From a virus: DNA of 13,932 nt. A program made the position numbers and the translations under genes. Under the pieces are notes generated by a model, which was given only the letters and a program-made list of their open reading frames with translations, was not told the origin of the DNA and searched no databases. The stretch lies in the UHGV virus genome UHGV-0136738, one strand, 5' to 3'. This document shows positions 5,682 through 13,688 of the stretch, one piece after another; positions within the stretch are counted from its first letter, which is position 1, and each line of letters starts with the position of its first letter.

Positions 5682-7082
5682 TTAACCGTCCACATTAAAG
5701 TCGATACGAGTGATATATTTACTACCCCACGCGGAGTCCGCCTGCGGGATAATGGCGTAGTTATCTACGGCGGGTACGTTTACGGTAGACCCATCGGAAT
5801 AGGTAATGTCGATACTTGTCGCGCCGTTCATGGTTACTTTTGCGGATGCCGTGGTCCGGGTCACAGATGAAGAACCAGTTACTATCGGGGACGTGGCATG
5901 GCCTGATGGTTCCATTTGTATCAACGCGATATTGAACCCGCTGACACCATCCCCCGTGAAGGTGAGGGAGTTAGACGACGACAACATGTTTATCTGCGAA
6001 TAAATCAATCCGCCAGAGTCGTTAGTGTCCGCGGACATTGAAACGTGATACCACCCACCACCGAGATTACTTACAAACGACCTTGAGGTGTCGCCTGATA
6101 TCAAATCACCAGAGGCTAAGTCAACATAGGCATACTGGAAATTATCTAAAGCGGCTGGGTTGCCGATGGTTACCGCTGCTGACTGGTACTCATCTGCTTT
6201 CATAATAGCACTAATAGAGTATCTTGTTTCTTGTTCTGGGGCCTCTGGCTGGTTTATATAGTGGCTCCCTGATACCGACGTTGCGGCTAATTTAGCGGCG
6301 TAAGTTTCTTGGAATAACATCAAAGAACTCGCCGTGGTTGTTGTTCTGGTGCGTGAAAATGATGTAGATAGTAAGTTGTTAGAGTGTTCTACCACGTTGG
6401 TTGAAGCGCTTTCCGGCGGCACACGCCCAACAGCAACCCCATCGATAAACGTAAGGGGCCATTCATCGGCAGCGGACGGCACAAGATTGCCGTTTCGGTT
6501 GATGTAGTAAACCTGCGGCCCGTCATACACAATGCGGTTATCTAGTGTAGACGCCAGAAGGTTAATCGGTGGATAACCCGCGGGACCTTCGTTACTCCAG
6601 ATGCGGGGGAACGTAGTTTCGTAGTTCGCGTATATCTTAAGGAAACTGCCCAGACAGTCGCCGTAGCAACCATACAAATCCGGCAGATTGTTAATCAGGC
6701 ACTGGTTCTCAAGGTCCTGGAACGGCGATTTCTCAGCGGTTGCCGTGAAAGTAATCGTCCAGTTAATGCCATCTTCGGTGGACTCCGCGATGGTTGACGT
6801 AATGGTTACCTGGTAATCCTCGATACCCATGCCGAAGTCGTGCGCCATCCAGAAACTGGACGCGCCGCCGTCTACTTTCTCAAGAAACGCGAGGAAAGTC
6901 TGTCGTCCAAGCGCGGAGGTGATAAGCGTCACACTGACAGGGAACACGTCATAATAGGTGTCACGCCCCTGACGGACGCCACCACCCGCTAAATCAACAC
7001 TCCAGACGTTGTTACGTCTGGTCATCGAGTAGCCTTTCGACACAATAGGCTTAAGGCTACGTGGAAAAAATAAGTCACCCAT
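5682..7082 (-). CDS. minor tail protein (distal tail protein position), putative
   Basis: 466-aa ORF whose ATG at 7082..7080 overlaps the TMP stop codon as TAATG, indicating translational coupling. It is the first gene after the tape measure, where the distal tail or minor tail protein usually sits. Confidence 0.5.
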   Translation of the reverse strand: MGDLFFPRSLKPIVSKGYSMTRRNNVWSVDLAGGGVRQGRDTYYDVFPVSVTLITSALGRQTFLAFLEKVDGGASSFWMAHDFGMGIEDYQVTITSTIAESTEDGINWTITFTATAEKSPFQDLENQCLINNLPDLYGCYGDCLGSFLKIYANYETTFPRIWSNEGPAGYPPINLLASTLDNRIVYDGPQVYYINRNGNLVPSAADEWPLTFIDGVAVGRVPPESASTNVVEHSNNLLSTSFSRTRTTTTASSLMLFQETYAAKLAATSVSGSHYINQPEAPEQETRYSISAIMKADEYQSAAVTIGNPAALDNFQYAYVDLASGDLISGDTSRSFVSNLGGGWYHVSMSADTNDSGGLIYSQINMLSSSNSLTFTGDGVSGFNIALIQMEPSGHATSPIVTGSSSVTRTTASAKVTMNGATSIDITYSDGSTVNVPAVDNYAIIPQADSAWGSKYITRIDFNVDG

Positions 7083-9355
7083 TATTTGAACCCCGGCGCG
7101 TTTCTTGTGGCCTTGCGGGCCTTGCTAATCTTACTGTTACTGTTCTGCAAAGAGGCGGCGACCTGTTCCTCGATGATGATGCGCAGACGCCCTTCATCAT
7201 CCTGCTCGGTGGACACGTTGCCGATTTGCGAACTCGTGTTGTTTACGATGGTAACATTAGATGGGCCGGAAGAAGACCCGTTTTGGCCCATAATCTCTTT
7301 CATTTGTTGCGCGGTGCGTACTCGCGACGCCCCCGCGGGCATAATTACCTCAGGTTTACCGCGTTCGGCGATGGTGGAAGCCTGCCCCGCGGATAACTGG
7401 CCCCCCTGTTCACGCGCGGACCTGATAGCGGAAACCTGCGCCATACCGGCCCCAACAGCAGCGGCAGCGGCTACTGGTGCAAGGAATGGCCCAACAACCG
7501 GGATAGCAGCTGTTGACTTATACGCTTCAATAGCTGCAGTATACGTAGCGATAGTGGCCTGCACAATCGCGAACGCCTTATAAGCGCCGGATGCTTCACC
7601 TAACGCGGATCCAATGTTAGAAGCCATGTTACCAAAAGCTGTTGCCGTTGCGTCAGCACGCTTGGTTGCGTACTGCTCGTTGATGGCGCTAAGCGCAGCC
7701 TGATATTGCTTCTCGCTAATAAGACCTTGTTCTCGGTACTTATCGGCTACCGCCAGTTTCTGCTGTTCCTGAATATCCAGAAGCTCAAGCTCGGTGGCGT
7801 TCTGGCCCATAATCTGAGCCATGAAATCCTCACCTTTCTGTTGCTTATCCTGGGCTTCTTTCTGGCGTTTATCCAGTTCATCCTGCCGTTTTTGCCCTGC
7901 TTCAAGAACAATGGCGGTTTTAGCCTGTTCGTACTCTTTTAACGATAGCGCACCCTGACTGTAGAACTCTTTTGCTTTAGCCAGTTTCTGCTGCTCCTGG
8001 GCGTCAATAGCCTTTAACTCGTCATTGTTCTGACGGGCCAAAGTGTCGAGGTAATCTTGTGCCTGATTACGCAATTGTTCTGCTTTCTTAGCGGCTGCTT
8101 TTGCTGCTTTATCGTCGGTTTTCCCCGTCCCACCAGTCCCGCCTTTTTTATCAACAAGGCTGGCTAAGTCGATTTCTTGCTTCTTGCGCTCGTCATACTG
8201 CTTGCGCTGTTCCTCAATTTCTTTCTTACGCTGCTTAGACCTGTCGGTAATGGCCTGGGACTCCGCCTCTGCGCGTTTTATGCTGGCGGCATATGCGGCG
8301 TCGGCCTCCGCAGTCAGGTTTTTAAATGTGAGCGCTGCCGTTTTGCTCGGGTCAAACACGTCAGCAAGAGTCTGGCCTAACGCTACGGCATAATCATCAA
8401 TGCGCTGAAACCATGCAATAACCTCGTGGAATGTCTGCTGAATGTCAGGCAACCACTCACGGATAGCGTCAGGGATTGTGCCAAGCGAATCTGACATGTT
8501 CGCCGATTTGTCTTCTGTGTCGTACGCCAAATCATTCAAGGCGTCAGAAATAAACTTGAACGACTCATTGAACAGCGTCGCCCAATCCTGGAGTGTGGAT
8601 GCTATCTCATTAGACGCAATGGCATCGGTGAGCGCAGTTACTGCGTCTTCGGCCGCCGCGGCTTGCTCACCTACGGCGTCGCCAAAACCAGACTGCGCTA
8701 CCGCAAGAACAAGACCGTCAAATGAGTCAGCAAGGCTCGACAACTGCCCGTCAAGGGTCTTCGAGCGCGTCTCCATCGCTCCGGCGAAATCAGTATTGCC
8801 GATGTTTAGCAGGTATTTCTGAATCTCTTCGGAGTTCTTCTTGACCGTGGTCGTTACGCCACGGAACGTGAACGAAACTGTGTCCGCCTGTTGGGAAGAC
8901 TTGATGCCGAACTCTTTTAAGCGCTCGAATTCAAATGTACTGGCGTCAGCAACTGCCTCAATCATCTGGTTAAGGTCTTTACCCATCGCAGCCGCAGTGT
9001 TGCCGTAGGAGATTAACGCCTCTTTGCTGGGGTTAAGCCCGAGCGCCACGAGCTTGGTAAATCCCTCTACAGCCTGGTTAAGCCCGTATGGTGTTTCTTT
9101 AGCAAACTGTTGCAGGACGCTGAAAGCCTTTGCCGCGTTCTCGGCGCTTCCGGTCATTGTGATGAGTCCGGAGTTCAGCTTATCGAAGTTGCGCTGAGAG
9201 TCCACCAGCGCGCTGAACACCTGTTTAGCGGTTTCCAGACTGACAACGGCAGCTGCCGCCGCCCCCGCCGCCTTGGTAAGCCCGTTCAGTTGAGATGTTG
9301 TTTTATCGACGCCGGTCGAAGATACTCGTACTATCAAACTAGCGGTATCAGCCAT
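7082..9355 (-). CDS. tail tape measure protein
   Basis: Long ORF, 757 aa from ATG at 9355 (AAGGT SD about 8 nt upstream; the ORF track extends to TTG at 9370). Ala-rich N-terminus, a long charged coiled-coil centre with two internal repeats (residues about 449-484 and 526-560), a hydrophobic Ala/Gly/Val-rich segment near residues 595-650, and location directly after two chaperone ORFs. Confidence 0.85.
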   Translation of the reverse strand: MADTASLIVRVSSTGVDKTTSQLNGLTKAAGAAAAAVVSLETAKQVFSALVDSQRNFDKLNSGLITMTGSAENAAKAFSVLQQFAKETPYGLNQAVEGFTKLVALGLNPSKEALISYGNTAAAMGKDLNQMIEAVADASTFEFERLKEFGIKSSQQADTVSFTFRGVTTTVKKNSEEIQKYLLNIGNTDFAGAMETRSKTLDGQLSSLADSFDGLVLAVAQSGFGDAVGEQAAAAEDAVTALTDAIASNEIASTLQDWATLFNESFKFISDALNDLAYDTEDKSANMSDSLGTIPDAIREWLPDIQQTFHEVIAWFQRIDDYAVALGQTLADVFDPSKTAALTFKNLTAEADAAYAASIKRAEAESQAITDRSKQRKKEIEEQRKQYDERKKQEIDLASLVDKKGGTGGTGKTDDKAAKAAAKKAEQLRNQAQDYLDTLARQNNDELKAIDAQEQQKLAKAKEFYSQGALSLKEYEQAKTAIVLEAGQKRQDELDKRQKEAQDKQQKGEDFMAQIMGQNATELELLDIQEQQKLAVADKYREQGLISEKQYQAALSAINEQYATKRADATATAFGNMASNIGSALGEASGAYKAFAIVQATIATYTAAIEAYKSTAAIPVVGPFLAPVAAAAAVGAGMAQVSAIRSAREQGGQLSAGQASTIAERGKPEVIMPAGASRVRTAQQMKEIMGQNGSSSGPSNVTIVNNTSSQIGNVSTEQDDEGRLRIIIEEQVAASLQNSNSKISKARKATRNAPGFK
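7691..8026 (-). repeat. internal duplication within the tape measure gene
   Basis: Peptides ELKAIDAQEQQKLAKAKEFYSQGALSLKEYEQAK and ELELLDIQEQQKLAVADKYREQGLISEKQYQAAL lie 76 codons apart. Their DNA cores gccagtttctgctgctcctg (7980..7999) and gccagtttctgctgttcctg (7752..7771) are 19/20 identical. Confidence 0.6.
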
Positions 9356-9680
9356 GATTTCTACCTTCAAAGATTGCTTCTAGGCCCATGATAATGTCTA
9401 TCTCAAACAGGCTAAGCTGTTTCTGTGTGACGTCGAGATAGGCTTTCAGGTCTTGCCACGTTACGGATTCTCTTGCAAACAATACTACCGCGTCATCGCG
9501 CACGTGTCGCGTAAACTTAATGTCGCAATACGTTTCAAAGGTGGATATGAAAAGGGGCGGGCATTCTGGCCCACCCCGTCGCGCTGCACGTTTTTTCTTA
9601 TCGATTACACCCATTGCGATAAGCGCCTGTTCGTGACCGTCGGCTATAGAATCAAATTCTCTGATTTTATGCTTATCCAC
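9348..9680 (-). CDS. tail assembly chaperone, T-like distal ORF (possibly made as a G-T fusion by -1 frameshift)
   Basis: 110-aa ORF from GTG at 9680 with no convincing SD. The same frame is open upstream to 9731 and overlaps the end of the 139-aa ORF in the -1 frame. Its TGA at 9350..9348 lies just inside the TMP start (ATGGCTGA). Confidence 0.5.
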   Translation of the reverse strand: MDKHKIREFDSIADGHEQALIAMGVIDKKKRAARRGGPECPPLFISTFETYCDIKFTRHVRDDAVVLFARESVTWQDLKAYLDVTQKQLSLFEIDIIMGLEAIFEGRNHG

Positions 9681-9712
9681 GAACTCATAGGTGGCGAACC
9701 TGTACAGCGCGT

Positions 9713-10132
9713 CTACTTTTCCTGCAATGCTTTACGCTCAGCATTATGGAACGCTGCCACCTGAGTACCAAGCCCCTTGAACTGGTCTAGAAGCTTATTA
9801 AACGCCTCTTTGGAGAACGGTTCATCATCAAAGCTCCAGCCGTTGACGACTTCCGCAGCGAGTTGGCGGTTCAGGTCTTCTGCCAGTTCATTAATCGCCA
9901 GGTTATATTCAGTATAGTCGCCGGATTCTTTGGCGGCTTTTTCGAGTTCTTCAAAACGTGCAAGCCCGCGACGGTACGCAATAATGAAAGCGCGACCCGC
10001 TTTAACGGCGACATCGGCATCAGGGCTTACTACGTTAAGCCACTCCCCCGAGTCTTCACCGTTCGGCAGGAGAATCGGCATCTTCTTGCCTACCATCGCT
10101 TTCTCTTCAAAATAAAAATCAGAAAGTTTCAT
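9713..10132 (-). CDS. tail assembly chaperone (G-like)
   Basis: 139-aa acidic ORF immediately upstream of the T-like ORF and the tape measure gene. ATG at 10132 has SD AAAGGA about 8 nt upstream. Confidence 0.6.
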   Translation of the reverse strand: MKLSDFYFEEKAMVGKKMPILLPNGEDSGEWLNVVSPDADVAVKAGRAFIIAYRRGLARFEELEKAAKESGDYTEYNLAINELAEDLNRQLAAEVVNGWSFDDEPFSKEAFNKLLDQFKGLGTQVAAFHNAERKALQEK

Positions 10133-10239
10133 TCTTTAATCCTTTGGTTAAGAGGTTACTGGTTAAAGGAAATGCGCCAGACGGGAACCACCCGCTTTTC
10201 GTGTGCGACACTAGGCGCAAAATTATTCTAACACACTAC

Positions 10240-10268
10240 TTGCACACCCCAATATAATAGCGTACTAT
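10240..10268 (+). promoter_or_regulatory. candidate sigma70-like promoter for the plus-strand cassette
   Basis: TTGCAC (10240..10245), 17-bp spacer, TACTAT (10263..10268), about 30 nt upstream of ATG 10300. A perfect TATAAT at 10253..10258 overlaps but lacks a properly spaced -35. Weak matches only. Confidence 0.2.
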
Positions 10269-10299
10269 TCACTTACACCAACAATGAAGGGGTTTTAAA

Positions 10300-10491
10300 A
10301 TGTCCAGTTTACCAATTTCCTTAATCCTGTTTGCACTGCTCGCGTACTTTGCGCCTTTTTTAGTCGCCTATTTCCGTAACCATAAAGCAAAGCTGGCGAT
10401 ATTTATGGCTAACTTATTTCTCGGGTGGGTTCTGTTGCCGTGGGTATTCATTTTAATCTGGGCTTGCAACTCGAACGTGAAAGAGAAGTAG
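10300..10491 (+). CDS. small membrane protein resembling the superinfection-immunity (Imm_superinfect) family
   Basis: 63-aa ORF with SD GAAGGGG 7 nt upstream of ATG. Two predicted transmembrane helices. Sequence YFAPFLVAYFRNHKAKLAIFMANLFLGWVLLPWVFILIWAC fits the pattern recalled for that family (YF-P, A-x-R-x-H, IF-x-NL-x-LGW, W, LIWA). Confidence 0.5.
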   Translation: MSSLPISLILFALLAYFAPFLVAYFRNHKAKLAIFMANLFLGWVLLPWVFILIWACNSNVKEK

Positions 10492-10529
10492 GCTACTATA
10501 AGACAAATCCTAAACACGAGGAAGTAAGC

Positions 10530-11270
10530 ATGGCCCAGAAGAAAATAACCGACGAGCAGTTACAGGAAGAATTGAACGCCGGGGTGAAGAACGTAGATAT
10601 CGCCCGTAAATACGGCATCTCAGACCGCGTTATCCGAATCCGTAAAGCGAAGCTGGCTAAGAAAGGCGTAGGCCACGGGCGTGACGTAAGCCACCTTGTA
10701 CCAGACGGCTACAAGATTAAGGGTACGTCGTCTCTGGTGGACGAGTTCGGTAACACTAAGTTGCAGTGGGTTAAGACAGACACCGATGCCGAACGTCAGG
10801 TTGAGTTGATGAAAGCCGTAGTCGAAGGCATGAAGTCGGAGATTACTCCCGTTCCGCCAGTTAAGGCCGCCCGGGCTAAACGTGACGACAAGCTGCTTAA
10901 CCTGTACACCGTGTCTGATTTCCATCTCGGTATGTTAGCCTGGGCTGACGAGAGCGGCGACGACTGGGATATGAAAATCGCGGAGGACTTATTTTCACGA
11001 TGGTTTGATGCCGCGTTTCAGAAAGCACCGGATGCAGGTACGGGGGTTATTAATCTTCTTGGCGACTTAGCGCACTTCGATAGTCTTGATGCCGTTACAC
11101 CAGCAAGCGGTCATGTCCTTGACGCCGACACGCGTTACCAGAAACTTGTTCGCTATATGATTCGCATGGTACGCCGTGTTGTCGATATGGCACTGGTTAA
11201 ACATAAAACTGTTCGCTTGCTTATCGTGCAAGGGAACCACGACGAATCCGGGATGATTTGGCTGGCGTAG
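10530..11270 (+). CDS. HTH domain fused to N-terminal half of a calcineurin-like (SbcD/Mre11-type) metallophosphoesterase, ending at an in-frame TAG
   Basis: ATG at 10530 with strong SD GAGGAAG 5 nt upstream; the ORF-track GTG at 10425 overlaps the preceding gene. Residues about 17-42 (GVKNVDIARKYGISDRVIRIRKAKLA) look like a helix-turn-helix. Phosphoesterase motifs I (VSDFHLG), II (GDLAHFD) and III (GNHDE) follow. TAG at 11268..11270. Confidence 0.7.
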   Translation: MAQKKITDEQLQEELNAGVKNVDIARKYGISDRVIRIRKAKLAKKGVGHGRDVSHLVPDGYKIKGTSSLVDEFGNTKLQWVKTDTDAERQVELMKAVVEGMKSEITPVPPVKAARAKRDDKLLNLYTVSDFHLGMLAWADESGDDWDMKIAEDLFSRWFDAAFQKAPDAGTGVINLLGDLAHFDSLDAVTPASGHVLDADTRYQKLVRYMIRMVRRVVDMALVKHKTVRLLIVQGNHDESGMIWLA

Positions 11271-11660
11271 ATGTTCAGCACACTGTACGACAACGAGCCT
11301 CGTGTGTTCGTCGATACGTCGCCGGATGTGTATAAGATGGTGCAACACGGCAAAACGACGCTGTTCTTTCATCACGGGCATAAGGCACGCTTCGACGCAA
11401 TCGAGCCTGTTATGATTGCCAAGTTCCGCAAAGCGTTCGGCGAGAGCGTCTACAGCTACGCGCATGTAGGCCACCTCCACCACCAGAAGATTGTCGAAAG
11501 CCGTAACATGATTGTCGAACAACACCGCACCTTAGCCGCTAAAGACGCATACGCCTCCCGTGGCGGATGGATGTCAGGCCGCGGGGCAAATGTAATTACT
11601 TATAGCGCAGAATATGGCGAGGTCGCACGTTTAACTATTTCACCGGAGATGCTGGGATGA
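11271..11660 (+). CDS. C-terminal half of the same metallophosphoesterase (motifs IV-VI), same frame as the upstream ORF
   Basis: ATG at 11271 directly follows the TAG and is in the same frame (11271 minus 10425 is divisible by 3). Contains FFHHGH and AHVGHLHH, matching the downstream His and GHxH motifs of the fold. Ends with ATGA overlap into the next ORF. Confidence 0.65.
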   Translation: MFSTLYDNEPRVFVDTSPDVYKMVQHGKTTLFFHHGHKARFDAIEPVMIAKFRKAFGESVYSYAHVGHLHHQKIVESRNMIVEQHRTLAAKDAYASRGGWMSGRGANVITYSAEYGEVARLTISPEMLG

Positions 11661-11887
11661 CTTCAAAATACGACAGAACTATGACAAATATACACGGCAG
11701 CACGATGACTGTTGATGTCTATGATGTCCTCCGCGCTTTCGACATCCGAGACCCGGCGCTGCAGCACGCATTGAAAAAGTTGCTGTGTATGGGTCTACGC
11801 GGGCACAAAGACACAGGCACGGACTTAGAAGAGGCAATAGAAAGTCTGGAGAAGTTACGAGAGTACCGGAGTAATATTGATGAGTGA
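11657..11887 (+). CDS. hypothetical protein (76 aa)
   Basis: ORF whose start overlaps the upstream stop as ATGA, consistent with translational coupling inside the cassette. No motif recognised. Confidence 0.45.
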   Translation: MTSKYDRTMTNIHGSTMTVDVYDVLRAFDIRDPALQHALKKLLCMGLRGHKDTGTDLEEAIESLEKLREYRSNIDE

Positions 11888-11894
11888 AAGTATT

Positions 11895-12056
11895 ATGAAA
11901 ACAATATATGTAATCAGAATATACGATGAAGAATGGGATGAGTGGGTAGACATTTACGCCGTTGGAAGTAAGGAAGAGGCGTCAAAAGAAATGACAGAAA
12001 GAAGTGACCGAGGCCAGTTAACTAACTTCTATGAAATGCCATTCAAAAGTGAATAA
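11895..12056 (+). CDS. hypothetical small protein (53 aa), AT-rich
   Basis: ATG 11895 to TAA 12054..12056, translation MKTIYVIRIYDEEWDEWVDIYAVGSKEEASKEMTERSDRGQLTNFYEMPFKSE. Uses A/T-rich codons (ata, aga, aaa) unlike neighbouring genes and has a weak SD. Ends 4 nt before the terminator hairpin. Confidence 0.3.
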   Translation: MKTIYVIRIYDEEWDEWVDIYAVGSKEEASKEMTERSDRGQLTNFYEMPFKSE

Positions 12057-12060
12057 GAAA

Positions 12061-12080
12061 AAGGCCCCTTTCGGGGCCTT
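12061..12080. terminator. Rho-independent terminator hairpin, probably bidirectional
   Basis: Perfect 8-bp stem aaggcccc / ggggcctt with loop tttc, followed by agttttatg on the plus strand and preceded by gaaaaa (a T-run for the minus strand). Lies between the plus-strand cassette and the minus-strand major tail gene ending at 12085. Confidence 0.65.
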
Positions 12081-12084
12081 AGTT

Positions 12085-13269
12085 TTATGCGTAGGTGATA
12101 CGCTGAATAACGATAGACGACTGATATTGGTTGCCCGTAGCCTGGCCTTCAATAGACTGAGTGATAGACTCTGGGCCGCCAATCTCTGGTGTAACTGCGG
12201 TCAACTCCGCACGTTTCAAACTGAAAGACATAGCCCCGTTTACCCCCGCCAGAATAGAGTTAATCTCTACCTGTTGCTCGTTGATAAACTTCTGAATCAT
12301 AGCCATGTCGTACAGTTTGCCCGCGATGGAAAAGGTGTTAGCCGCACGGCCTCGTTCAACGAACGCTACGTTACTGTTGCCGAGTTCGAACTGGGCGGAA
12401 GCACCGTTATCGTTGGTGATGGTCAGCGTGTCGCAACGCAACGGCGACGTACCATCGAACACTGACACATCTACAGATGAGAACGGCTCATCGGTAAACG
12501 TCACCTGAGAGAAATCAGAGCCAGCCGGAGGTGCAGTAAGAATCTCCTGGCTCAGGCCGATGAACGGGAAGCTGCCGGTTACCATCGCGTTAACCGCCTG
12601 CTCGATAGTGAAGCCGGAAATCTCAACTCCTTTGGTAAGCATGTACGCGTCAGGGTTTCCGCACTGGCCTTTGAACCAGGTCAGGATAGAGAACGTTTTA
12701 CACGCGTTACCGGTTTCCAGCTTGTCGCCGGTTTCCAGCTTGTCGCCGGTTTTAGCGTCAGTCGTTACAGTTTCTGTGGTAAGCGTGTGCTGAATACCTG
12801 CGCCTGTTACGACAAGAGCGGAAACTTCGGTAACGATGAATGGCTTCGCGTTATCGCCTGTCAGACCGGTGAACGCGATAAGGTCGCCAACTTCAACGCC
12901 GTCGGTAATGAAGCTACCGGTTGCGCGGGTGAACGTTTTACCAACCGGCGCAACCGTAATTTCCGCGCCAGTAATCTCGACGCCAGCCTGCCACGTAGAT
13001 GTCATCGCACCTGCGAGGAAATCATCCTGACTTTTTGAGCTAAGCTCGATGGCGTATTCCCCGGTTACCTGTTTGTTACCTGTGCGGATAGACGTGGTTT
13101 CACGGCTGCCGTCCAGTTCGTTTGACGTCAGTGCGTCACGTGTTACCGCGGGAACACCGCCAGTATTGCGCAACGGCGACCATACCGGGGAAGTCGGTGT
13201 TACGCCCGGGGTAGTTTCCGCCACATAGAATTGCGCGGTATTCGCGCCCTTAAAAGGAGTTGTAGCCAT
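12085..13269 (-). CDS. major tail (tube) protein, putative
   Basis: About 394 aa from ATG at 13269 (SD AGAGG 8 nt upstream; the ORF track starts at GTG 13275). Ser/Thr/Gly/Val-rich beta-type composition. Lies after a tail-terminator-like gene, is followed by a terminator, and precedes the chaperone/TMP genes. Confidence 0.5.
   Translation of the reverse strand: MATTPFKGANTAQFYVAETTPGVTPTSPVWSPLRNTGGVPAVTRDALTSNELDGSRETTSIRTGNKQVTGEYAIELSSKSQDDFLAGAMTSTWQAGVEITGAEITVAPVGKTFTRATGSFITDGVEVGDLIAFTGLTGDNAKPFIVTEVSALVVTGAGIQHTLTTETVTTDAKTGDKLETGDKLETGNACKTFSILTWFKGQCGNPDAYMLTKGVEISGFTIEQAVNAMVTGSFPFIGLSQEILTAPPAGSDFSQVTFTDEPFSSVDVSVFDGTSPLRCDTLTITNDNGASAQFELGNSNVAFVERGRAANTFSIAGKLYDMAMIQKFINEQQVEINSILAGVNGAMSFSLKRAELTAVTPEIGGPESITQSIEGQATGNQYQSSIVIQRITYA
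12710..12753 (-). repeat. perfect 18-bp tandem duplication inside the major tail gene
   Basis: Plus-strand unit ggtttccagcttgtcgcc occurs twice in tandem (12712..12729 and 12730..12747), followed by a partial third copy ggtttt. It encodes the in-frame peptide repeat TGDKLETGDKLETG. Confidence 0.9.
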
Positions 13270-13271
13270 AT

Positions 13272-13688
13272 TCACAGCCTCTTGGTGAATGCAATAAAGT
13301 TAATCGACAATGGTCTTTTGGCCCATCCATTTTCTACAATCAGCGGCCCCAGGCTAACCGATTGCACTTCGGCGCAGATGTCGTTACGTGAAAATGACTT
13401 ACCTGCTTTGAATGCCGTGTTAAGTAAGTCTGCCATTTTATTGATTGGCGCGCTACCTTTCACCGATGCGTAGTTAATGTCTACCTGATAAACACCGGCG
13501 CGTTGCTCGGTGAAGAATAAGTCGGCCTGCTCTGTATCCGCCAGCAGCATGTAGCTAGCCAGATACGGCGTATCAGTTGACGTTGGGGCGTCGATATTTT
13601 CAAGCGCAACTTTGATGCCGTTGGTGTTTCCGAAGGCTACCAGCGGCACGTCAAACGCTTTTGTTAAATCCTCAAAGTAGCCCATCAT
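13272..13688 (-). CDS. tail terminator / tail completion protein-like, putative
   Basis: 138-aa ORF with SD AAGGTG just upstream of tandem ATG codons; its stop lies 2 nt before the major tail gene ATG. Size and position match a tail terminator; no motif recognised. Confidence 0.4.
   Translation of the reverse strand: MMGYFEDLTKAFDVPLVAFGNTNGIKVALENIDAPTSTDTPYLASYMLLADTEQADLFFTEQRAGVYQVDINYASVKGSAPINKMADLLNTAFKAGKSFSRNDICAEVQSVSLGPLIVENGWAKRPLSINFIAFTKRL

Follow-up and report, generated by a model that had tools for sequence, protein, structure and literature searches.

The virus genome UHGV-0136738 carries a plus-strand block of four genes in the middle of its minus-strand tail operon, between the tube (major tail) gene and the tail assembly chaperone gene. 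The block occupies positions 10133–12084 of a 13,932-nucleotide stretch of DNA, which was analysed as a whole and is called the window here. We interpret it as the local version of an old, subfamily-wide and hypervariable accessory slot, set where the Guernseyvirinae tail operon naturally divides into transcription units, with a probability of roughly 0.72. The four genes lie between 10300 and 12056 in the open reading frame (ORF) map and encode a protein of the T4 Imm family, a helix-turn-helix (HTH) metallophosphoesterase (MPE), and two small proteins, ORF76 and ORF58.

Megablast searches with the block region and with the whole window matched 279–497 phage records. Every one belonged to Guernseyvirinae, either to the E. 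coli phages of Kagunavirus or to the Salmonella phages of Jerseyvirus. NRG857CP3, K1G/K1ind, ZCEC5 and Bas74 matched best, at 86–92% identity, with the DNA of the window 87–90% identical to K1G, ZCEC5 and Bas74. These matches identify the window as the tail module of a phage that is new at the Kagunavirus level. The anatomy given by an earlier reading of the sequence alone was largely borne out. The plus-strand layout with an Imm-like protein, an HTH-MPE and two small ORFs agreed with the ORF map, the divergent intergenic region was exactly 167 bp long (10133–10299), and the hairpin at the other edge of the block was called as a terminator on both strands. The MPE gene was present as described, but its reading frame is interrupted by an in-frame TAG at 11268–11270, which that reading had overlooked.

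Occupancy and module content of the slot

The distance between the tube and chaperone genes was compared among 80 IMG/VR loci with tube proteins 67–95% identical, and was measured in the 75 that contained both genes. The gap ranged from 99 to 3141 bp. Seven loci had an empty site with a gap below 200 bp (99–184 bp), 11 had a gap of 200–700 bp holding a single small antisense gene, 14 had a gap of 700–1700 bp, and 43 had a gap of at least 1700 bp. Occupied slots carried one to more than five genes. The tube and chaperone genes were also adjacent on one strand in Pseudomonas phage PMBT14 and Vibrio phage 1.132.O, which have a distantly homologous tube protein. The sequence-only reading had proposed a search for relatives in which the two genes adjoin without the cassette, and such relatives were found in these two phages and in the 7/75 IMG/VR contigs.

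Within the Kagunavirus clade (n = 29 loci), the slot was filled and an intact MPE gene was present in 29/29. The chaperone-proximal gene encoded either Imm (19/29, plus one divergent copy) or a signal-peptide protein of phrog_14165 (9/29), never both. The distal position was taken by ORF76 (16/29) or by a pair of phosphatase and kinase genes (13/29), again never both, and ORF58 was present in 4/29. All four combinations of these two binary choices occurred, which indicates that recombination shuffles the modules. The single-gene slots of more distant relatives encoded an Imm-like protein, a member of the signal-peptide family, a lipoprotein with a LAGC lipobox, or a protein of unassigned type.

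The slot was filled at the same place throughout Kagunavirus and Jerseyvirus in the 279–497 GenBank records. The same four-gene order, imm–MPE–orf76–orf58, was found in ZCEC5 and in one IMG/VR locus (L019), with a divergence matching that of the flanks. The arrangement has been annotated in GenBank since phage K1G (ORF18–21, NC_027993). K1G shares the position, the orientation, the imm and MPE genes, the regulatory region and the terminator with the window, whereas it carries an intact MPE gene and has a PNKP-type phosphatase and a deoxynucleoside monophosphate (dNMP) kinase-like protein in place of ORF76 and ORF58. A literature search turned up no discussion of the arrangement as a variable slot and no functional work on the cassette or the MPE family.

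Several further observations concern exchange at the slot. HNH homing-endonuclease genes (PF13392) adjoined the MPE or ORF76 gene in L020, L021, L025, L026, L030, L049, L050 and L087, and an antirepressor-like Rha/KilAC gene (PF09669 + PF03374) did so in L032, L049, L051, L062, L065, L077 and L078. In the Kagunavirus clade both kinds of gene are only occasional additions to the slot. They may drive module exchange. The MPE protein of the window was 99% identical to the copy of phage Golestan and 96–99% identical to hundreds of metagenomic copies, while the DNA around it was only ~87% identical to any known phage. The imm gene occurred as two alleles, with about 72% and 95–100% identity. The near-identity of MPE against ~87% flanks, together with the two imm alleles, is a sign of mosaic exchange within the slot. 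In L044 (IMG/VR UViG_3300023291_000095), a 613-aa ORF lay in the slot at approximately 7277–9119 (+), on the same strand as the tail genes, so the slot can also accept large genes.

Transcription boundaries and a structured RNA upstream of the chaperone gene

On the tube side, the block ends in a bidirectional intrinsic terminator at 12061–12080 (AAGGCCCC-TTTC-GGGGCCTT), which serves the tube transcript on the minus strand and the cassette on the plus strand. The hairpin has an 8-bp stem with 6 GC pairs, a 4-nt loop and T-runs on both strands. It was retained across 43 related loci with 97% coverage and 87% identity.

On the chaperone side, the 167-bp divergent region was 90% identical across relatives, compared with 79% for the flanking chaperone and imm genes. 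Two back-to-back promoters are predicted from the sequence. The predicted −10 element of the cassette promoter, TATAAT at 10253–10258 (+), was invariant in 16 distinct related sequences, and an alternative pairing would combine TTGCAC (10240–10245) with TACTAT (10263–10268) at a spacing of 17 nt. The predicted extended −10 element for the chaperone and tape-measure transcript, TGnTAGAAT, lies at 10225–10233 (−). TAGAAT occurred at a fixed distance upstream of the RNA element described below in most sequences bearing that element, and was TATTCT in the Jerseyvirus-like group. Host RNA polymerase would start at these two promoters. The rightward transcript would carry imm–MPE–orf76–orf58 and end at the bidirectional terminator, which would also end the tube transcript. 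The leftward transcript would begin with a three-stem RNA leader and continue through the chaperone, the tape measure and the distal tail proteins.

The cassette had been proposed to uncouple transcription of the chaperone and tape-measure genes from that of the tube gene. This proposal did not hold, because cassette-less relatives already possess either a terminator with a promoter-like element or the structured RNA. The empty loci L064, L079 and L093 showed the tube stop codon, a GC hairpin with a T-run, a promoter-like −10 element and then the chaperone gene. In the cassette-less loci L066–68 and L082, the RNA element directly followed the tube stop codon. Since the boundary is present without any cassette, the cassette does not create the uncoupling.

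The RNA element itself is a three-stem structure resembling the int-alpA motif, and is located at 10157–10222 (−), between imm and the chaperone gene. It starts ~7 nt past the predicted −10 element. An Rfam scan gave a single match above the gathering threshold, int-alpA (RF02996) at 10157–10221 (−), with 36.6 bits against a threshold of 35.8 and E = 1.5e-4. At the equivalent place, K1G, ZCEC5, Bas74, a Jerseyvirus and a cassette-less contig scored 26.7–31.9 bits. No Rfam match was obtained at the gathering threshold among 14 related loci, because the relatives score just below it.

Minimum-free-energy folding of the chaperone leader as a single sequence gave no significant result (z = −1.2). 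Across 68 distinct loci, compensatory changes were plain in the sequence preceding the chaperone gene, and a covariation test was performed on a MAFFT alignment of 24 sequences from this set. The structure tested was an outer stem enclosing two hairpins. Of the cells, 84% were paired compared with 67% in shuffles, and double changes were seen in 15/17 pairs compared with 8.8 ± 1.3 in shuffles, of which 0/500 reached 15. The covariation score was 0.431, against 0.143 for shuffles and 0.05–0.13 for slid controls. The result held on 37 distinct sequences. G-U pairs were frequent, which fits an RNA read in the chaperone sense. Folding alone would have dismissed the RNA element, and the covariation analysis overturned that outcome.

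A covariance model built from the phage alignment (R1) matched the window with 75 bits at 10168–10222. It gave exactly one match per locus in 64/95 sources, always upstream of the chaperone gene, and no match in Vibrio 1.132.O, PMBT14, Otaku or the most divergent contigs. R1 also recovered 45 bacterial instances from a pattern-selected set. In the two that were inspected, from Pluralibacter (L110) and a proteobacterial metagenome-assembled genome (L176), the motif directly followed the 3' end of a tyrosine integrase gene, shared its strand and preceded the next island genes. This order of gene stop, motif and next gene is the same as in the cassette-less phages. A BLASTN search of the RNA element against complete E. 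coli genomes gave no match.

The RF02996 int-alpA RNA motif was described by Weinberg et al. 2017 (PMC5737381). The window element shares with it the outer stem around two hairpins and the CUAG, CGAAAAGCGGG and CCCGCCUG segments. It differs in that it precedes a phage tail chaperone gene instead of lying between integrase and alpA, and in that the loop of hairpin 2 has 5 nt instead of about 9 nt. The working label of RF02996 in Rfam is presumably that of a candidate small RNA (sRNA). We tentatively consider another possibility, that int-alpA-type RNAs are cis-acting boundary elements and not free sRNAs, setting the expression or stability of the downstream message (here the chaperone and tape-measure mRNA), and that the terminator/promoter junction marked by the RNA is a recombination-permissive site at which Guernseyvirinae swap cassettes. 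According to this proposal, the RNA would directly follow one gene, which is the integrase gene in genomic islands and the tube gene in phages lacking the cassette, and another transcription unit would begin after it. Next to the element, at 10133–10160 (−) and also in relatives, there was a conserved stretch that is unstructured, repeats AACC motifs (AACCAGUAACCUCUUAACCAAAGGA) and finishes with a Shine-Dalgarno sequence. This stretch could be a ribosome standby site or a protein-binding site.

Cassette genes and the amber codon

The cassette genes are preceded by Shine-Dalgarno sequences. The MPE and ORF76 genes share an ATGA overlap, and the ORF76 and ORF58 genes overlap by 8 nt. With these ribosome-binding sequences and overlapping stop and start codons, the cassette looks like one translationally coupled operon.

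The first gene, imm (10300–10491, +), encodes a 63-aa protein that matched PF14373 with 48.6 bits against a cutoff of 27.9 (E = 7.5e-13) and phrog_1039, 'immunity to superinfection' (1.5e-22). It has two hydrophobic segments at approximately aa 3–25 and 32–57, each with a 19-residue window of Kyte-Doolittle hydropathy >2.0. These features fit a small integral membrane protein of the T4 Imm family and a candidate for superinfection exclusion. By analogy with T4 Imm, the protein would sit in the inner membrane and exclude the incoming DNA of related phages. The likeness to T4 Imm consists of small size, membrane location with two hydrophobic segments, and a score above the Pfam gathering cutoff. 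The window protein differs in being 63 aa long, siphovirus-encoded and placed inside a tail module, and a BLAST search of the phage database showed it to have no direct similarity to T-even phages. All identifiable chaperone-proximal slot genes encode envelope proteins, namely Imm, the phrog_14165 signal-peptide family or the LAGC-lipobox lipoprotein. The replacement of Imm by signal-peptide and lipoprotein genes in relatives supports an envelope-level exclusion role for this position.

The Llp protein of T5 and the Cor proteins of T1, phi80 and N15 are receptor- or entry-blocking exclusion proteins encoded beside siphovirus tail genes. The slot resembles these systems in having the gene of a small envelope-targeted protein within or beside the tail genes, with Imm exchanged for a signal-peptide protein or lipoprotein in relatives. 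In contrast, the window Imm has no sequence similarity to Llp or Cor, and the receptors of Guernseyvirinae are glycans.

The second gene encodes the HTH-MPE (10530–11660, +) and has 376 codons, the same length as in K1G and Bas74. A match to phrog_704 covered the full length of the protein, and this family comprises 2040 phage records and 4603 cluster representatives at 50% identity. Two other families, phrog_20703 and phrog_20762, matched only one part each, N-terminal (aa 1–195) or C-terminal (aa 260–374), which indicates that split or truncated versions are annotated in other phage genomes. The five calcineurin-type motifs (DxH, GD, GNH(D/E), H and GHxH) are present in the family, and D130, H132, G178, D179, N236, H237, H282, G314 and H317 were invariant in 80 homologs with 31–51% identity. 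An AlphaFold model from this 80-homolog alignment was confident, with a predicted local distance difference test (pLDDT) score of 93.5, and consisted of an N-terminal three-helix domain with weak GerE/LuxR HTH matches, a beta-hairpin and the MPE core. By motifs and fold, the gene belongs to the metallophosphoesterase family.

The closest folds to the model were the nucleases Mre11 and SbcD and archaeal PolD DP1, at 12–17% sequence identity and with only generic similarity. PDB sequence searches with the single protein and with an 80-sequence profile gave marginal matches only (GerE HTH 0.07, Mre11 0.16). A Rad50/SbcC-type ATPase partner was absent from the cassette and from the surveyed slots. 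With no partner ATPase and only generic structural similarity, membership in the Mre11/SbcD group is not established. Compared with Mre11, SbcD and DP1, the window MPE has an extra N-terminal LuxR/GerE-type HTH domain and no Rad50/SbcC partner or polymerase subunit. The intact protein is probably a metal-dependent, DNA-directed nuclease. Identity at the three codon positions across 43 related loci was 0.94/0.98/0.66 for the MPE gene and 0.89/0.92/0.57 for the tube gene, which indicates that purifying selection is the stronger on MPE. The MPE homologs of Drexlerviridae, Dhillonvirus and Vibrio phages adjoin lysis or replication genes and not the tail module.

The copy in the window would be cut after codon 246. 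Codon 247 is TAG at 11268–11270 (+), where K1G and Bas74 have GAG (Glu247), and it divides the frame into ORFs of 246 and 129 aa. It sits between motif III (GNHD, residues 235–238) and motif IV (H282), parting motifs I–III from motifs IV–V, and the native ATG of Met248 lies directly 3' of it. The same TAG was found in three 100%-identical assemblies from one sample, namely the window, the ENA scaffold OBRE15-1_SAMN03283289 and a Logan contig of SRR1761716. An exact-protein look-up traced the window to a metagenome. It was found in none of the 120 best database homologs, all of which were intact. A degenerate pattern scan of IMG/VR gave 0 contigs with TAG and 25 with GAG at the site. None of the 40 IMG/VR loci carrying MPE had TAG there, and two were disrupted elsewhere (truncated or frameshifted). 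Among the IMG/VR copies, L051 looks frameshifted and L049 looks truncated.

On these comparisons, the amber codon is private to this phage population, and it is most simply read as a mutation that recently abolished the function of the gene in nature. An alternative genetic code was considered for the TAG and rejected; TAG is the normal stop of both imm and the chaperone gene in the same window, which makes recoding unlikely. Most likely, MPE is inactive here unless the amber codon is suppressed or the fragments reassemble, and the two fragments may do so after re-initiation at the adjacent ATG. This natural knockout suggests that a widespread and conserved MPE is dispensable, at least in one gut population.

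We consider it rather improbable that the TAG has no meaning, as a consensus error, a minority allele or an efficiently suppressed codon that still allows full-length MPE to be made. Such an explanation would suit the strong purifying selection on the family, the restriction of the TAG to contigs from one sample or read set and its absence from every other source. Residue 247 is not conserved in the family, so any inserted amino acid would be tolerated. On the other side, independent assemblers (ENA, Logan and the source of the window) agreed on the base, a deep consensus seldom contains substitution errors, and TAG serves as a genuine stop for the two neighbouring genes.

ORF76 (11657–11887, +) is a small conserved phage protein or domain that matched phrog_2452 (3.9e-36; 774 phage records), and in phage records it occurs as a stand-alone protein or as the C-terminal part of a larger one. 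No Pfam match was obtained for ORF76, for ORF58 or for a 255-aa fusion relative. ORF76 had no similarity to the P-loop protein of K1G, nor to the genes downstream of MPE in HK578 and Vibrio K121. The latter result indicates that there is no conserved MPE–ORF76 pairing outside Guernseyvirinae. ORF58 (11880–12056, +) is a small acidic protein and an optional module, and it belonged to no family in Pfam, PHROG, NCBIfam or PADLOC. The two would represent exchangeable small genes. In sister phages, the alternative to ORF76 is a PNKP-type HAD phosphatase (HAD_PNKP) together with a dNMP-kinase-like P-loop protein of phrog_139. The presence of these two genes behind MPE points to the turnover of DNA or nucleotides and away from defence. 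An NCBIfam scan of the cassette proteins gave no informative match.

Alternative explanations, counterparts and surrounding tail genes

Several points weigh against the reading as an accessory slot with an exclusion gene and an inactivated enzyme. PF14373 also includes many uncharacterised small membrane proteins. In K1B4, the only Kagunavirus with RNA-seq, a low-resolution study placed the imm homolog in the 'late' class (PMC12645636), which is a poor fit to an early exclusion function. The Pfam scores of MPE were below the gathering scores for both Metallophos_2 (21.7 vs 27) and Metallophos (18.8 vs 21.5), so its fold assignment rests on the structure model instead. The universality and constraint of MPE in the Kagunavirus clade fit a near-core gene better than an accessory one. 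A consensus promoter scan listed neither of the proposed promoters, and the cassette promoter was not listed because its −35 element is weak. The amber codon may also be a minority variant or suppressed.

The block could instead be mainly an anti-defence or abortive-infection module, in which MPE would degrade an immune signal or repair nucleic acid and ORF76 and ORF58 would act as small inhibitors. Variable, exchangeable content is typical of counter-defence islands, and the small ORF76 domain is promiscuous, occurring in phages unrelated to one another in their early or accessory regions. Sister phages have a PNKP-type phosphatase, and T4 Pnkp counters anticodon nucleases. Metallophosphoesterases also include cyclic-nucleotide phosphodiesterases, one of which, Rv0805, was among the Foldseek matches of the MPE model. 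However, PADLOC (7 proteins, E <= 0.01) gave no defence-system match for any cassette protein, the partner of the phosphatase is a protein of the dNMP-kinase family and not an RNA ligase, and the best structural matches of MPE are DNA nucleases. The Kagunaviruses of the BASEL collection that carry Imm, MPE and ORF76 are still highly sensitive to restriction-modification and variably sensitive to Old (PMC11990801). In addition, this phage persists in nature with MPE knocked out. We therefore regard a defence role as unlikely. The sequence-only reading had offered superinfection exclusion, abortive infection and anti-defence together, as opposed to virion structure; the content is indeed non-structural and Imm fits the first, whereas the PADLOC result and the sensitivity of the BASEL phages speak against the other two.

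The same reading had also taken the block for a moron-type insertion. Taken literally, as a recent insertion specific to this phage, this is very improbable. The block does have its own terminator, a likely promoter and an orientation opposite to its neighbours, and its GC content is low in the intergenic region (0.42), imm (0.43) and ORF58 (0.36) compared with 0.506 for the window. Against this, the same site is filled in hundreds of Kagunavirus and Jerseyvirus genomes, ZCEC5 and L019 have the identical four-gene order at flank-like divergence, and the regulatory region is more conserved than the flanking genes. Since relatives share the occupied slot, the idea of an insertion in this phage falls, and the accessory-slot part stands with its empty sites and variable non-structural content. 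MPE in particular does not behave as a moron gene, with 2040 phage records, a genome-like GC content of 0.52 (ORF76 has 0.48) and purifying selection stronger than on the tube gene.

The slot nevertheless shares features with morons of the HK97/HK022 type. It places additional non-structural genes between a gene pair that adjoins in related phages. The block has a terminator of its own, a promoter of its own is probable, and GC deviates in part of it (imm and ORF58). In contrast to morons, the slot is carried by virulent phages, in which expression from a prophage does not occur. It is also an ancient site with modules exchanged by recombination and not a single insertion, and only its module content is sporadic. 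MPE, the largest of its genes, resembles the genome in composition and is found almost throughout the clade. In its workings, the feature is comparable to a moron or accessory islet, and also to the exclusion genes that other siphoviruses keep beside their tail genes.

The least credible explanation makes the block a conserved core component of the tail module that serves in structure or assembly. In its favour, the slot is always filled in the Kagunavirus clade, and in K1B4 the imm homolog is of the late class with the neighbouring chaperone gene (046) in the structural-gene co-expression group (PMC12645636). Against it, no cassette protein matched a structural family, seven slots are empty and eleven hold a single gene in relatives whose tube and chaperone are the same, MPE homologs elsewhere adjoin lysis or replication genes, and the slot modules are exchangeable. 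Of the refuting outcome named by the sequence-only reading, one part was observed, in that relatives show a conserved block. However, the block has no structural homologues and empty sites exist, and with these results the accessory-slot reading stands.

The finding is real but ordinary, and nothing here overturns current understanding. Its additions are a private amber codon in a strongly conserved enzyme and a covariation-supported int-alpA-type RNA at the slot boundary. What had appeared as a one-off oddity becomes a subfamily-wide accessory locus with a defined boundary of terminator, slot, promoter and RNA leader, and with a small catalogue of interchangeable modules. The slot is a natural landing pad for engineering the Kagunavirus and Jerseyvirus phages used in therapy and biocontrol. 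The amber phage offers a ready-made start for working out the function of MPE, and through the RNA element an orphan Rfam motif gains a second genetic context in which experiments are feasible.

The surrounding genes lie on the minus strand, and most have overlapping stop and start codons in the ORF map. The tail terminator gene (13272–13688, −) is followed by the tube gene (12085–13275, −; PF18906 Phage_tube_2, 9e-36), which is the left neighbour of the slot. The right neighbour is the tail assembly chaperone gene (9713–10132, −; PF08748), followed by a chaperone extension (9348–9680, −; PF23812), the tape measure gene (7082–9370, −) and then the distal tail genes. The two chaperone ORFs within 9348–10132 (−), of 139 and 110 aa, are in different frames, and the equivalent pair in K1G is annotated in RefSeq as a joined, two-piece frameshift chaperone. 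The tube gene contains a perfect 18-nt in-frame tandem duplication at 12712–12747 (−), in which GGCGACAAGCTGGAAACC occurs twice and encodes GDKLET twice. This duplication accounts for six of the extra residues by which the window tube protein exceeds the 388-aa K1G protein.

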